Positions 3,001 to 9,000 of a DNA stretch of 64,000 nucleotides are shown piece by piece. The first letter of the stretch is position 1. Each line of letters begins with the position of its first letter. The position numbers are program-made. This stretch comes from an uncultured Methanosarcinales archaeon (lineage in GTDB: Archaea > Nanobdellota > Nanobdellia > Woesearchaeales > BS150m-G63): NCBI GenBank assembly GCA_964630685.1, contig CAZVVW010000004.1, forward strand, positions 1 to 64,000. The letters are read 5' to 3'.

Positions 3001-6000
3001 TATCTTTTATTTTTTCAAAAAATATTTTTTTTTCTTTGCCTTTTTTAATTAAAAGGTAAAAATCACAATCAAAACCCATTTCAATCAAATTTTGCCGTGT
3101 TTTAAAATATTTTTCTAGTTGGTTCCTTTTTTTTTGATTTTCAAAAGGGTAATATTTTGGTTTTCTCGTAGATTTACTTTCTACAATCGCTATTTTTTCT
3201 TTGCCTTCTTGGTTATAAAACAAGACCCAATCAATTTGTTCTGGATTAATTAATTTAAATATTTGTTGGGTATTAAATTTTTCTTGGAGTATTTTTCTAC
3301 TTTCTCTTTCCCACAATTGACCCAATATTCTAGGATTCATTGTTTACTTTTTAATTTAAGAAGTTTATATATTTTTCTTTATAAATTAATTTAAGAACAA
3401 CTAAAATCAAAAATTTTATAATCTGGTTGAGTTTATATATTAAAATGATAAATAGAACATTACCTTTGGCTGCAATGGAGAAGTTATTAAAAAAATCAGG
3501 GGCAGAAAGAGTATCTGATAGTGCAAAAATTACTTTAAGAGACTCTTTAGAAGGAATAGCAGAAGAAATAGCTACTCAGGCGATGAAATTAGCCTCTCAT
3601 GCAGGAAGGAAAACAATAAAAAGCGAAGATATAAAACTTGCAGCAAGGGATTAAATAATCCATTATAATTTTATTTTCATAAAATCTTCTGCACAAACAA
3701 CATCATCAAAAAAGTTTCTGGCATCTTCTTCTAATTCTTGGGTGTTTTTATATCTATTGCTGAAGTGCATTAAGATCAATTTTTTCACATTAGATTTATT
3801 TGCTATCAATGCTGCTTGTTTGGATGTTAAATGATAATATTTAGTTGCTTTGTTTTTTAATTTACTGCTATAAGAAGATTCACAAATAAGCAAGTCTGCA
3901 TTTTTTGCAATCTCATAACAATTATCACATAAAAGGGTGTCTGAAATAATACCTATTTTTTTACCTTCCACTAAATAAGTGAATTTATCAGGGTCTATTT
4001 TTTTGTTTTTCCATTTAATTTCTTTTCCTTCTTGTAATTTTCCCAATAAAGGGCCTTCAGGAATACCTAATTTTTTTATTTCTTGGACACTGATCCTTCT
4101 TTTATCTTTTTCAGTAAAAGAGTAGGCCAAAGAATATATCCCATGTTCTAAAGGAAGGGATTCTAATTTGAATTTTGAATTTTCAAAGAAAACACCTTCA
4201 CTAACTTCTTTTATTTCTATTTTTATTTTTTTATCAGAAGGAAACGCACTAAATATGTAATCTATATTCTTTTTTGTTCCTTTAGGGCCATATAATTTAA
4301 GCGTTTTAGAATAATCAGTGGTAGCAAGGCTTTGTAATACTCCTGGTAAACCAAATACGTGGTCTCCATGCCAATGGCTGATTAATATTTTAGTTATTTT
4401 AGTGAGACTAATTCCTGCAATTTTTAATTGTCTTTGGGTTCCTTCACCACAATCAATAAGAATTCCTTCAGAGCCATAGCTAAGAAACAGAGATTGTTGA
4501 TTCCTTTCTTTTGTTGGAGTCATACAGGAAGTACCCAAAAAAGTTAATATCATTTTAATCATCAGTTAATTATTTGAGATTATATATCTTTTGTTTTTGT
4601 TTCTTTAAAACCAAACATTTTTTAAACATATTTTATTTTATTAAATTTATGGCTAAAAAAAACATAGTAAAGGCAATTTTTGCTGAAGAAAGGGTACTAA
4701 CAGAAAAAAGCGATTCTGCCAGAGTTTTTTATGATAAAAGTAGGTTTGGAAATATTTTGGAAAATGGAAAACTACAATTATCTCTTTTAGAGGCACTATA
4801 CCTCATAGAAAAAGAAAATTTAATTGTTTTAGATGGAAGAAACAAAGAAATAGATTTTGATAAATTCATCAAGAAATCCAAAAGAAAGGAACCTAATTTT
4901 TGGGTAAGATATTGTGTATTTAAAGACTTAAGGAATAGAGGTTACATTGTTAAAACTGCATTGAAGTTTGGGGCTGATTTTAGGGTTTATGATAGAGGCA
5001 TTAAGCCAGGAGAGGATCACGCTAGGTGGGTGGTTTATCCAGTCCACGAAGCTAGCGGGCTTACTTGGTACGATTTTGCAGCTAAAAATAGGGTCGCACA
5101 CTCAACAAAAAAGAGACTTATGATGGGTATTGTAGATGATGAAGGTGATGTAACTTATTATGAAATAAGGTGGATAAGGCCTTAATTTTTTCTTATTTTT
5201 ATTATTCGAGTTAAACAAACCCCCAAAATAAAAAACTATTTATATCTATTAATTTTATATTTATTTTATGGGGGGGGAAACCGAATTTATACTTAAAAAG
5301 AAGACTATTCTACGTTTAATTAGTGAAAAAGGGCCAGTAATCCCTGCTCAAGTGTATAAAGAAATAGGGGAAAATGTATTGATGGCTTCTGCACTTTTAT
5401 CTGAAATGGCATCAGAAAAATCAATTAAAATTTCTTCTATTAAAATTGGTGGCAGCCCACTTTATTATTTTGAAGGGCAAGAACACCTACTTGAAAAATA
5501 TATAGAAAAATTACATGAAAAAGAACAAAAATCAATAGAACTATTAAAACAAAAAAAAGTGCTGATGGATAGATTATTAGATCCAGTGGTTAGGGTTTCT
5601 TTAAGGCAATTAAAAGATTTTGCAAAGGCATTTGAAGTCAAAATAGGTGAAAATAAAGAGGTGTTTTGGAAGTGGCACTCTTTTCCTTCCAATGAACTTG
5701 AACCAAAAGTAAAAGAAATTTGGAGAAGCACCAAAACGCCCACAAAAACAATAAAAAACCTACAGCCACAACCATCACAATTTAACCAAGATAAAGATAA
5801 TAATAACAAACTAAAAACCCCACTCAAACAACAAATTAAAAAAATAACTAAAGTATCAGAAAAAACAAAAAAACTAACAAAAAAAGAGGTCAAAAAGAAA
5901 AAAGATGAATTTTTGTTGAGGGTACTACGAAATTTTGAGCAAGATAACTTGAAAGTTCTTAGCCAAGAGAATTTAAAGACCAATAAAGAATCTGAATTTG

Positions 6001-9000
6001 TTGTTAAAATACCTTCAGCAGTAGGGAATTTAATTTATTATTGTAAGGCAATAAATAAAAAGAAATGTAGTGATAAAGACTTGAGTTCTGCATTTGTTCA
6101 AGGACAATTAAAAAAACTACCAGTGTTGTTTTTGACAACAGGGGAATTAACTAAAAAAGCAAAAGAAATGCTAAAAAAAGAATTTAAATCAATGGTCATA
6201 AAAAGGGTGTCATAAATGGGAGTAGCACTAAAAGATTTAGTTGTAAGAAAAGACGTTTCTTTTGAAGAATTAAAAGATAAAATTCTTGTTGTTGATGCAT
6301 ATAATAATTTATACCAATATATTACCACAATTAGGCAAAGAGATGGATCTTTATTGACAGATTCAAAAGGAAATGTGACCTCACATCTTATTGGTTTGTT
6401 TTCTAGAACTACTAGTCTTATTCAAAAAGGATTAAAATTGGCCTTTGTTTTTGATGGTGAAGCCCCAGAAATGAAAAAAGAAGAAAGGGAAAGGAGAAAA
6501 GAAATAAAAATAGAAGCAGAAAAAAAATATCAAGAAGCAGAAAAAAAAGGAGATAAAGAAGAGATGAAAAAATATGCCCCTAGAACTTCTAAATTAACAC
6601 CTAAAATGGTTGAAGAAGCAAAGATGATGGTTAAGGCATTGGGTTTGCCAGTCATTCAAGCACCAAGTGAAGGGGAAGCACAGGCAGCAAAAATGGTCAA
6701 CAAAGGAGATGCGTTTGCAATAATTAGTCAAGATTATGATTCTTTATTATATGGTGCAGAAAGAGTGATCCAAAATTTGAGTGTTTCTACTAAAAGAAAA
6801 ATTAAAGGGTCTGTTGCGTATCAAACAATTAAACCCAGCATGATTGGTTTAAGTGAAAATTTAAACCACCTGGGGTTGGATCAAGATCAATTAATTGTTT
6901 TATCTATTTTAGTTGGAACAGATTATAATCTTGGAGGTGTAAAAGGTATTGGGCCTAAAACAGCACTTAAATTAGTTAAACAATATGGTTCTGATTTTGA
7001 TGATTTATTTAAAGAGTCAAAATGGGGAGACCATTTTAATTTTCCTTGGACAGACGTATATTATATTATAAAGAAAATGCCTTGGAAAAAAGATTATAAT
7101 TTGAATTGGGGTGAACCAAACGAACAAGAGCTTAGAAAATTATTGGTAGAAGAACACAATTTTTCAGAAGAAAGGTTTGAGAAAACAATTAAAAAATTAA
7201 TGAAAAATAAAGAATCGAGAAAACAAAAAGGTCTTGGAGATTTTTTTTAGATTTTTAAAACATATATTGGCGTGAGTTCTGTAATTATTTTAGCCATACC
7301 TAAATCTTCTGTTTTTTGAATGACTTCTCTTCCCCTATAAGTGAATTGGAGTTCTCTAACGTTTGAGATTATTTTTTTCCCTACCCCATTGGCCATTTCT
7401 ACCTCAAAAAATCTTTTATTGTTTGTTTCAAAAACATTATCTACAGTCAACGAATCTAAGAATTTATATCCCCCTCCATGTGGGAGGATGTTTGCATTTT
7501 TTAGTCTATTATAAACACCCATTTTTTTTGCTCTTTTCGTAAACCCCAGAGATTCTATTTGGTCTTTTGTGAAATTTTTGTTTCCGCGTACTAAATAAGA
7601 AGGGATATCTGCCCTAATAGATACTGGAAAAATTTGTTTTTTATTTTTTATTGGTTGGCAACCTAAAACTATTTCGTTGGGATTTAAGAGTCCTTGGTGG
7701 CAAATATTGGAAATAATTTTACCATTAAATAATGTGTTGAATGCTATTTCTCTTCTTTTATTTGCAAATTCTTCTGCGTATTTGTAAAATTTAAAATATT
7801 TTTTTAGTTCTTGTCCTTGAAGTGTATGTAAGGGCCCCCAAGGGGTTTTTATTCTGTTGCTCATTTCTAATAATTTTTTGCTATGGTTCCAATAAAGACC
7901 AAAACCCACATCACTATCCTCTTTTAATTCTGGACAACCAGCATGCATTATTGCAGCATATTTTGGAAAATTAGTTGAGTGATTATGTACTTCAAAAATA
8001 TCTATGAAATGGTTACCTTTATAAAAATCCCATTTTATTTTTGTGCCTTTTATTTCAATATTGCTTTTTTGTAATTCCTTTATTTTATTTATTAGTTCTT
8101 TTGGTTTAGGTACCTTATCTATGGATCCTACAAGCATACCGCAAGCATTAGGCAAAGAATCTAAGATTGTTAAGTTTTCTTTTCCCCCTCCCCAACTCAA
8201 TTTCCCTCCATAAGAAATACCAGATTCCCATCTTCCAATATTTCTTGTTACTGTTTCATCGGGAGTTGTGATAAAGGTGGCATTGGGTTCCATACCTAGG
8301 CCTTCTTGGACATAATGTATCTTGGCTAAGCCATACTTCATATTTTCCTGACTTAAGCGAGATGCAGCATCATTTATTCCTGTTGAGAAAATATGTTTTT
8401 TTGCTCTTTCTAAATTTATTTTCATTTTTTTATTAAATTTACAATTTTTAGTTTTTTTGCATAAGTAAAAACATAATTTAATACCATAAATAATCCAATA
8501 CCAATTACTACCGACATCACAGTCCAAAACAAGAGGTCTTTAGTACTGAAAGAAATAATTTCTCCAACAGCCCCATTATCAGTCATCTTTAATATTATTT
8601 TTGCGCCAGGCATAGCCCCCAAACCCACAATTGTAGCAATAGTTCCAATTGCAAAAATAACTTGAAGAATATTCATTTCTTTTTGCTCATTTTCATTATA
8701 AATAAAGCCTATCAAATCTAAGGTAGAACTTATGTATTCTTTAGTCATATTAAACTGGTCCTTTATATAATTATTTAACCCAACCATTTCTTTGAAATCA
8801 TTGAGTTTTAAATCTTCAAGAACATTTAAAATATTACATTCATCCAACCGTTCGTTTAAGAAATCATCTAATTGGTTGATTTTTTGAAGGGTAGAAATAA
8901 TCAATCTTTTTTTCTCTAACAATTCATCTATTATCAAAGGCAGATCCTTGTATGTTAATTTTTTTTGCTTTCTAAGTTTTTTAACTTCTTGCTCTATTTT

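Follow-up and report, generated by a model that had tools for sequence, protein, structure and literature searches.

We analyzed a 64-kb stretch of archaeal DNA (the window) and found that one of its proteins, here called X (315 aa, encoded by the ORF at 5268..6215 on the + strand, which translation of the window confirms as real), belongs to a single-copy housekeeping family of the class Nanoarchaeia. Our best explanation, to which we assign a probability of roughly one in three, is that X binds nucleic acid as an adaptor connected with tRNA processing and is mostly non-catalytic; we infer the nucleic-acid binding, the lack of catalysis and any link to the function of the tRNA-splicing endonuclease EndA. 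New for X are its class-wide range, its relationship to Mrr_cat, its degenerate motif, its predicted promoter, the confinement of its FEN1 linkage to one order, and the pattern of alpha+beta EndA pairs in genomes lacking it.

Family range and genomic neighborhood of X

Profile scans of the window protein gave no Pfam or NCBIfam match above cut-off, and a sequence search found no PDB match. A homologue search with X returned 841 proteins at E<=1e-3, the best 120 of which share 41–69% identity with it (except for one 193-aa fragment, at 100%) and carry no precomputed Pfam domain, in agreement with the initial annotation, which described a conserved, never annotated family. That annotation called the family order-wide; it is instead class-wide, as 389 of 401 genomes drawn from the whole class (including records named Parvarchaeota) match its profile, and X is a gene of Woesearchaeales, Pacearchaeales-like and Parvarchaeota-named lineages alike. 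The window's genome (G000) contains a single match. Thirty columns are invariant in a 35-sequence alignment (including G253, Y257, K264, D271 and K283), and conservation is at least 90% at P249, S250, C259, K260 and D269. The Nanoarchaeia, which rank high in abundance among uncultured archaea, have tiny genomes with very few genes whose role is unknown; X is likely essential, because it is near-universal and survives even in the 0.5-Mb genomes of our sample.

Upstream of X lies the gene for EndA (4646..5185, +; ~179 aa from the ATG at 4646, with the frame open from a TTG at 4574), which is full-length, has one match in the window's genome, and is recognized by tRNA_int_endo (3.6e-29), tRNA_int_endo_N (5e-13) and TIGR00324 (4e-34). 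Divergent from EndA and part of the same conserved block is an RNase Z-like metallo-beta-lactamase gene (3663..4562, −; Lactamase_B_2), whose product scores 24.6 bits against Lactamase_B_4 (tRNase Z), below the 27-bit cut-off. Downstream of X, the second cistron encodes flap endonuclease 1 (FEN1; 344 aa, 6216..7250, +; TIGR03674 2e-121, XPG_N and XPG_I). The position of X between EndA and FEN1 holds beyond the window, with the order EndA-X-FEN1 found in 65 of 80 related loci, and the X stop codon (TAA, 6213–6215) does abut the FEN1 start (ATG at 6216), forming a TAA-ATG junction at 6213..6218 (+).

We compared 80 loci of the window's own order with 32 from elsewhere in the class (other families). 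EndA is directly upstream of X on the same strand in 67 of the 80 and in 16 of the 32 (gap 21–58 nt in 48 of the 67 own-order loci), and the RNase Z gene is beside EndA in 47 own-order loci and also in many class-level loci. FEN1 directly follows X in 77/80 own-order loci and in 0/32 elsewhere. The link of X to the EndA and RNase Z genes is older and wider than its link to FEN1. In the 32 loci of other families, the genes downstream of X include a UPF0020 RNA methyltransferase (6 loci), Peptidase_U32 (3 loci) and GCD14/TrmI, which overlaps X in L015-L017, all of one genus. DNA-repair genes are found near X as well (FEN1 in the own-order loci, RNase HII in 1 locus, ERCC4 in 3 and Ogg in 1), which counts against the adaptor reading.

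Aligning 78 related loci, we identified a putative promoter at 5226..5246 (+), a BRE-like A-rich stretch and a TATA-like box ~22–40 nt upstream of the X ATG, with the consensus aACAAcAAAaTATATAAAc at -40..-22 of the start codon (A in 85–87% at -34/-33, and A/T in 94–98% at -30..-23). X is thus predicted from these alignments to have its own conserved BRE/TATA promoter and a leaderless X(-FEN1) transcript. With this putative promoter in the EndA-X spacer, the adjacency of the two genes would not be simple co-transcription; it may persist only since the promoter abuts the end of EndA, a point against the adaptor reading.

The proposal that X is a replication/repair factor is not supported as it was stated, given that the FEN1 linkage is confined to one order; operon linkage of the two genes holds within that order and fails in the other families, where X is conserved without FEN1 beside it. 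A reading in which X is a lineage-specific factor working with FEN1, by recognizing flaps, nicks or junctions and by recruiting or regulating FEN1 in Okazaki-fragment maturation or repair, is the best placed of the alternatives, though we consider it unlikely. A single promoter appears to serve both genes, and junctions in related loci typically read ...AAAATATAAaATG; an SD-like motif accompanies the ...TAAaATG junction in only 14 of 48, which suggests coupling by termination and reinitiation. The claimed translational coupling stands insofar as 49 of 76 loci have X and FEN1 spaced by -11 to 4 nt, but this tight spacing is less telling because 16 of 45 same-strand neighbor pairs in the window are equally tight. 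RNase HII takes the place of FEN1 downstream of X in one divergent lineage (1 locus), 3 loci have ERCC4/XPF two genes upstream, and the fold is common to the DNA nucleases NucS, MspJI and Hjc, whereas the non-FEN1 downstream partners are mostly RNA-modification genes and no PIP-like motif was seen by eye at the X C-terminus. Pairwise distance covariation over 40 loci gave r = 0.74 for X-FEN1 (partial 0.38), r = 0.83 for X-RNase Z (partial 0.64) and r = 0.60 for X-EndA (partial 0.06, the lowest of the three pairs), and so offers the FEN1 reading some support and the X-EndA link none.

The splicing endonuclease in genomes lacking X

No X match was found in 12 of the 401 genomes, and five of these 12 also lack EndA (0.24 expected by chance). 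Three X-negative genomes (G059, G247 and G369) have two EndA-domain genes, and in another (G315) a beta-like EndA ORF was seen by eye. The beta genes of G247, G369 and G315 overlap the end of the alpha gene, a place taken by X in other genomes. Most genomes that retain EndA without X have it as an alpha+beta pair (in G282 a single EndA gene has Hjc rather than X downstream), and no such pair was found in the 389 X-positive genomes; of those, the four with two EndA matches owe them to contig-end splits, a fragment, or two complete alpha copies. The pattern rests on two family-level lineages (f103 and f90) and may reflect a single event or simply follow from genome reduction.

A reading more doubtful than the adaptor one takes X as a so far missing, non-catalytic subunit of the splicing endonuclease in Nanoarchaeia, derived from a restriction enzyme and bearing winged helices, one that would bind alpha-type EndA and/or the pre-tRNA body and widen the substrate range to the numerous irregular introns. 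X would then be a third way, reached independently of the archaeal beta subunit and of eukaryotic Sen54/Sen15, of equipping the catalytic subunit with a structural or ruler-like partner, and its loss in Nanoarchaeum-like lineages would coincide with the rise of the alpha/beta enzyme. The alpha4 EndA is self-sufficient in other archaea, which counts against the adaptor reading. Of the 35 tRNA genes found in the window's genome, at least 14 are interrupted by introns (genes for the Met, Lys, Asp and Tyr tRNAs were not found among the 35), and PMC5829648 describes an extra loop in the alpha4 EndAs of DPANN lineages rich in disrupted tRNA genes. As an EndA homologue X was rejected: hhalign of its C-terminal domain against 33 EndA sequences gave a probability of 0.3%, and PF01974 (tRNA_int_endo) finds one gene per X-positive genome (apart from the four genomes with two matches) and never X.

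Domain architecture and the degenerate nuclease motif

The AlphaFold2 model of X has a mean pLDDT of 85.6, with values below 50 only at residues 159–209. It contains winged helix 1 (residues 1–71; 5268..5480, +), winged helix 2 (72–156; 5481..5735, +), a lysine-rich disordered linker (157–212; 5736..5903, +; net charge +14) and a Mrr_cat-like PD-(D/E)XK-fold domain (213–315; 5904..6212, +) with the alpha-beta-beta-beta-alpha-beta core of the restriction-endonuclease-like fold. Winged helix 2 is supported by the DSSP assignment (H72-81, H84-96, H106-114, E119-126, E129-136, H141-156) and by invariant columns, namely R109, R113 and D117 of the third helix and F133, W134 and W136 of the wing; the recognition helix of winged helix 1 is hydrophobic/acidic. 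The linker varies in length (the 35-sequence alignment is gap-rich there), and because of it many genomes give two separate X profile matches. Foldseek with the model found AspBHI (9.5e-5), MspJI (1.1e-4) and ScpB (1.2e-3), along with EndoMS, UFL1/DDRGK1, RPB5 and MarR-type proteins, reproducing the matches reported earlier and the architecture proposed with them. The worry voiced then over low TM-scores does not hold for the C-terminal domain queried alone, with which they reach 0.58–0.64.

The window's X itself has no match to Pfam Mrr_cat (PF04471) and was not recovered by a whole-genome search with the Mrr_cat HMM. Among the C-terminal domains of 59 relatives, one scores 24.2 bits (cut-off 21) and seven 18.7–20.8 bits, and 26 of 60 members match at E<1. 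Aligned by hhalign, 60 X domains and 12 true Mrr_cat domains are collinear over 89 columns (E 9.7e-5, probability 58%), pairing D243 with D, Y258 with E/Q and K260 with K. The C-terminal domain is probably a divergent Mrr_cat domain, for which this profile homology is supportive and not decisive.

As previously proposed, X has no canonical D...(D/E)xK triad. Its motif (E241-x-E/D243 ... Y258-C259-K260, K264-K265, D269-x-D271) reads D/E...Y/F-C-K, compared with D...(E/Q)xK in Mrr_cat; Y or F replaces the middle acid at position 258 in 256 of 268 members, K260 is F, M or I in the lineages f109 and f83, and it is V, M, I or L in at least four own-order loci (L036, L064, L082, L100). The site residues 241, 243, 260 and 271 are kept in 254–267 of the 268 members, so catalysis is possible, an observation that speaks against the adaptor reading.

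X could accordingly be an active nuclease with a variant Mrr-type site (E241, D/E243, K260), the missing acid being supplied by D269/D271 of the next helix, that cuts structured RNA or DNA such as excised introns or branched intermediates. PD-(D/E)XK enzymes whose second acid has moved to a helix exist (Cfr10I-type), the sequence and fold relatives of X are true endonucleases, and the counts by position are high (E/D241 in 266, D/E243 in 260, K/R260 in 254 and D271 in 267 of 268). Position 258, the hydrophobic residues at K260 in proteins that keep the rest of X, and the match of 7 of 60 members to NA-iREase1, an 'inactive restriction endonuclease' model, count against this reading, and we regard it as improbable.

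Equally improbable in our view is that X is a general DNA-binding chromatin or transcription factor, its restriction-endonuclease fold making an RPB5-jaw-like DNA contact, its winged helices acting as in RPC34/TFIIE-beta, and its neighbors being without functional meaning. The structural matches that would suggest this reach levels that winged helices often give, the RPC34 profile misses X, the recognition helix of winged helix 1 is hydrophobic/acidic, and both the class-wide EndA adjacency and the absence of X where EndA is alpha+beta are left unexplained. Two related identities were also rejected: PF04079 (SMC_ScpB) matches another gene (G000:C3:23038-23472, 8.3e-32), canonical ScpB, ScpA and SMC being already present in this genome, and PF05158 (RNA_pol_Rpc34) only weakly matches elsewhere (G000:C17, E 0.0055). 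A role for X in restriction or defence, as a type IV (Mrr-like) enzyme, is very improbable: X has the broad Mrr architecture of a winged helix followed by Mrr_cat, and 21 of 61 genomes in the order have true Mrr_cat genes, but those are patchy whereas X is a near-universal, single-copy gene whose housekeeping locus is fixed and which has a predicted core promoter of its own, its motif is degenerate, and no PADLOC model matched more than 2 of 60 members.

Proposed role and comparison with known systems

Under the adaptor reading, X would recognize structured or branched nucleic acid; its first part is the tandem winged helix, of which the second unit has invariant Arg/Lys on the recognition helix and an aromatic wing, with the middle part as a long basic disordered tether and the third part as a Mrr-type domain in which the catalytic E/Q has become Tyr/Phe and the Lys has become dispensable in divergent lineages. 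Its place would be in tRNA/RNA processing, next to the alpha4-type EndA, whose gene precedes it across the class, and may help EndA hold the many intron-bearing pre-tRNAs. In Woesearchaeales, X would have become the first cistron of a leaderless X-FEN1 transcript, tying the translation of FEN1 to its own.

If X acts with the splicing endonuclease, it would bear on how alpha4-type DPANN archaea process many irregular tRNA introns. Tracing its C-terminal domain to a Mrr-type restriction enzyme would make X a defence nuclease recruited into housekeeping, like the eukaryotic RPB5 jaw, and a 'hypothetical protein' now comes with testable hypotheses (EndA partner, FEN1 partner, variant nuclease).

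Compared with the beta subunit of the heterotetrameric archaeal splicing endonuclease and with Sen15/Sen54, X has no EndA profile similarity, and it has winged helices, which the beta subunit lacks. ScpB and other kleisin-binding 'kite' proteins have a tandem winged helix, as X does at its N-terminus, but the rmsd of 13–15 Å over the winged-helix pair indicates a different mutual arrangement. NucS/EndoMS differs in its N-terminal domain, which X appears to lack, and in its C-terminal PCNA-binding motif, not seen in X; in the per-member scan, the profile relationship is to Mrr_cat, and NucS does not rank in the top 25 of the 38 families by frequency. The N-terminal 'jaw' of eukaryotic RPB5, a recurrent fold match, is a non-catalytic restriction-endonuclease-fold module in a core information-processing machine; its likeness to X is at the fold level only, with no link of X to RNA polymerase, and archaeal RpoH lacks the jaw domain, as stated in PMC3906176.

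The closest likeness is to the Mrr-type domain (PF04471; the catalytic domains of MspJI and AspBHI; AF1548, PDB 1Y88), which has the same alpha-beta-beta-beta-alpha-beta fold, a collinear profile match that includes the '...C-K' strand and the 'TTG-x-(L/F)-T-K-x-A' strand-helix, and, as in X, a winged helix N-terminal to the nuclease domain. X differs in the Tyr/Phe that replaces the E/Q of (E/Q)xK and in a Lys that is not universal, as well as in having two winged helices (Mrr_N is not among the 25 families listed of 49 in a scan of 35 full-length members at E<=1) and a ~55-residue disordered linker. Mrr-type genes are patchily distributed and serve defence, whereas X, universal and single-copy, occupies a housekeeping locus.

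Gene X and its distribution

The unnamed gene under study (hereafter X; 5268..6215, forward strand, 315 codons) ends in a TAA at 6213-6215, and the ATG of the flap endonuclease 1 gene (FEN1; forward strand, 344 aa, TIGR03674 2e-121) follows at once, as the initial annotation had described. Upstream of X lie the tRNA-splicing endonuclease gene (EndA; 4574/4646..5185, forward strand) and, divergent from EndA, an RNase Z-like gene (3663..4562, reverse strand). Nothing in Pfam, NCBIfam or the PDB sequences matched X above threshold; the earlier count of 841 homologous proteins was reproduced (at E<=1e-3), and no Pfam domain is found in the 120 of them that were listed, which, where named, are each a 'hypothetical protein' of Woesearchaeota or Nanoarchaeota. 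An exhaustive profile search retrieved 1725 matching cluster representatives at E<=1e-3, including 1229 at E<=1e-30. A comparison of 35 members with NCBIfam gave nothing consistent, a PDB profile search gave no match, and the ESM Atlas returned only unnamed Nanobdellota clusters. We found no paper describing the family in the literature; supplementary tables of archaeal family surveys may number it internally, and the excerpts of two such surveys (PMC8204110, PMC9258230) mention only unannotated lineage-specific families.

The family had been described as order-wide (Woesearchaeales). We find it to be class-wide (Nanoarchaeia), because its profile has a match in 389 of the 401 genomes that were drawn from the phylum (each carrying the label same order or same class; six are flagged unpublished and were used only in this tally and that of the EndA domain PF01974) and because its most divergent form, used as query, retrieves relatives named Parvarchaeota by their sources. 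X is a single-copy gene in the window's genome (0.94 Mb); the double matches seen in many genomes arise only because the variable linker splits the hit into an N-terminal and a C-terminal half. When a longer length range was searched for fused or longer forms, one match (582 aa) was found among 8000 candidates; no Pfam domain is precomputed for its first ~270 residues, and it is probably a miscalled start and therefore no evidence of fusion. In G378, a genome labelled 'same class', the X copy on contig C10 (L002) outscores the window's own (7.9e-139), and next to it the contig ends in a fragment of EndA; since one more copy each of X and EndA lies elsewhere in G378, this genome looks like a mixed bin.

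Neighbours of X inside and outside the order

Among 80 loci of the window's order, FEN1 is the next gene after X in 77 and EndA the one before it in 67, with both flanking X in 65; of the 13 loci that lack EndA, four end at a contig edge. X and FEN1 are separated by -11 to 4 nt in 49/76 loci. This tight gap, together with the typical junction ...AAAATATAAaATG and an SD-like motif in only 14/48, fits termination-reinitiation coupling, although gaps of <=4 nt are common in the window (16 of 45 same-strand neighbour pairs). The EndA-X gap is 21-58 nt in 48/67 loci, and when 78 loci are aligned on the X start codon, a BRE/TATA-like consensus, aACAAcAAAaTATATAAAc, stands out in the spacer as strongly conserved at -40..-22. 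As this spacing is the geometry predicted for a leaderless transcript, X seems to be transcribed from a promoter of its own, and FEN1 would be the second cistron.

The window has a TrmB-family regulator (250..1023, forward), TFE-alpha (2370..2858, reverse) and an archaeal histone (3427..3654, forward) upstream of X, and this block recurs in part (TrmB in 18, histone in 17 and TFE in 9 of the 80 loci). A 121-aa ORF at 2975..3340 (reverse), with no Pfam or NCBIfam match, looks Hjc-like by eye (ERE near the N-terminus, D-W-V, then V-E-S-K) and may be a divergent Holliday-junction resolvase. A 426-aa ORF at 7247..8527 (reverse), likewise unmatched in Pfam and NCBIfam, is convergent with FEN1, overlaps its end by 4 nt and is beside FEN1 in only 1/80 related loci; its motif resemblance to RtcB was not borne out, as the RtcB profile finds only the canonical gene of this genome (contig C1, 100845-102143, 2.2e-164).

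The picture outside the order bears on whether X is a partner of FEN1 in replication or repair. None of 32 loci from the class's other families has FEN1 next to X; EndA immediately precedes X in 16 of them, and RNase Z usually lies beyond EndA. Downstream of X we found a UPF0020-type RNA methyltransferase (6/32), Peptidase_U32 (3/32) or RNase HII (1/32), in one genus a GCD14/TrmI tRNA methyltransferase overlapping X, and unrelated genes in the remaining loci. AMMECR1 is upstream of X and divergent from it in 4/32 loci (L129, L135, L137 and L138, from four families; gap 19-76 nt), and ERCC4/XPF is two genes upstream in 3/32; in L128, L129 and L131 (three families), the genes immediately before X encode the ERCC4/XPF nuclease and a small membrane protein of exosortase-like type. 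In a mirror-tree analysis of 40 loci, pairwise distances of X correlate with those of RNase Z (r 0.83, partial 0.64) and FEN1 (r 0.74, partial 0.38), and specific covariation with EndA is absent (r 0.60, partial 0.06, the lowest of the three), which gives an EndA link no support, in a test weakened by the strong conservation of EndA. X is the fastest-evolving of the four (mean distance 0.85 vs 0.38 for EndA). The FEN1 partnership, with the near-constant adjacency within the order in its favour, is the foremost of the alternatives, and we consider it unlikely.

Structure of X and residues of its C-terminal domain

The AlphaFold2 model (35-sequence alignment, mean pLDDT 85.6) has winged helices at residues 1-71 and 72-156, a lysine-rich linker (net charge +14) that is disordered at 159-209 (pLDDT below 50), and an alpha-beta-beta-beta-alpha-beta domain at 213-315. 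Folded alone (60 sequences), this C-terminal domain reaches pLDDT 89.8 and pTM 0.80, and Foldseek relates it to MspJI (1.8e-5, TMq 0.60), EndoMS (9.2e-4), AspBHI (2.6e-3) and the RPB5 jaw (3.4e-3). When the C-terminal domains of 60 members were scanned separately against Pfam, Mrr_cat matched 26 at E<1, one of them above the gathering score (24.2 vs 21 bits, profile positions 5-99 of 115) and seven more at 18.7-20.8 bits against that cut-off of 21; 'NACHT-associated inactive restriction endonuclease 1' matched seven. Profile-profile alignment with 12 true Mrr_cat domains from same-order genomes runs collinear through 89 columns (E 9.7e-5, probability 58%); in it, D/E243 aligns with the catalytic Asp, Y258 with E/Q and K260 with the Lys of D...(E/Q)xK.

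Could X be an active variant nuclease? Position 241 is E/D in 266 of 268 members, 243 is D/E in 260, 260 is K/R in 254, K264 is kept in 264 and D271 in 267, and a variant site built from E241, D243, K260 and D271 is possible. The canonical PD-(D/E)XK triad is missing, as already noted in the initial annotation, because position 258 is Y/F in 256/268 members and K260 is replaced by F, M or I in the divergent family-level lineages f109 and f83, which keep the fold-defining residues, K264/K265 and D/E271. Judged from these residues, the domain has likely lost catalysis, and we regard an active nuclease as improbable. A general DNA-binding or transcription factor, for which one might point to the winged helices, is given the same low standing, X having EndA as its neighbour both inside and outside the order. 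A defence enzyme, as the Mrr-type fold might suggest, is highly implausible, there being no consistent PADLOC match and a distribution unlike that of true Mrr_cat genes.

Two specific identities were also tried: X is not a missing ScpB, as canonical ScpB, ScpA and SMC are all present in the genome, and the TFE-beta/RPC34 profile has no match to X. The genome encodes a small true Mrr_cat protein (174 aa; C1:140566-140970, L117; 1.4e-7, above the cut-off) at another locus than X.

X and the state of the tRNA-splicing endonuclease

In the same set of 401 genomes, 393 have a PF01974 match. X goes unmatched in 12 genomes. EndA is missing from five of these as well, where chance would predict 0.24, which fits both genes lying together on an unassembled piece; two more come from a family whose X has diverged beyond the reach of the profile. 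Three (G059, G247, G369) carry two EndA-domain genes, G315 has a second, beta-like EndA ORF by eye, and G282 has one EndA, then an Hjc-like gene. In G247 (L168, 2496..3379), G369 (L169, 2340..3301) and G315 (L170, 2540..3399) a beta-like gene (149-156 aa) overlaps the end of a short EndA alpha gene (141-168 aa) and occupies the position that X has elsewhere; in all three, which are single-contig genomes, a threonyl-tRNA-synthetase-like gene follows. No alpha+beta pair was found in the 389 X-positive genomes: of the four with two EndA matches, two have the gene split at a contig end, one has a contig-end fragment next to its second X copy, and the last carries two full alpha copies. The complementarity of X and alpha+beta EndA is suggestive, with only two family-level lineages behind it. 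In G282 (92% complete; L173, 2160..2983) another putative PD-(D/E)XK protein is at the usual position of X, a 110-aa ORF with an Hjc-like sequence (..DLVC..VEVKST..) that overlaps the end of a 168-aa EndA. X as an EndA-derived beta subunit was ruled out at the sequence level (hhalign of the C-terminal domain against 33 EndA sequences, probability 0.3%).

We favour, with a probability of only about 0.35, a reading of X as a housekeeping nucleic-acid-binding adaptor that would have originated from a winged-helix/Mrr-type enzyme, would mostly lack catalysis and be linked with tRNA/RNA processing at the EndA locus, and would owe its link with FEN1 to an order-specific operon fusion.

As for possible substrates of EndA, ARAGORN found 35 tRNA genes in the window's genome, none of them within the 64-kb window; at least 14 bear introns, and several have odd predicted positions. 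No tRNA gene for Met, Lys, Asp or Tyr was detected in the whole genome by ARAGORN, which suggests further disrupted tRNA genes. According to passages of PMC5829648, those DPANN lineages in which many tRNA genes are disrupted include ones with extra-loop alpha4 enzymes, and only (alpha-beta)2 and epsilon2 enzymes were known to cut non-canonical introns.
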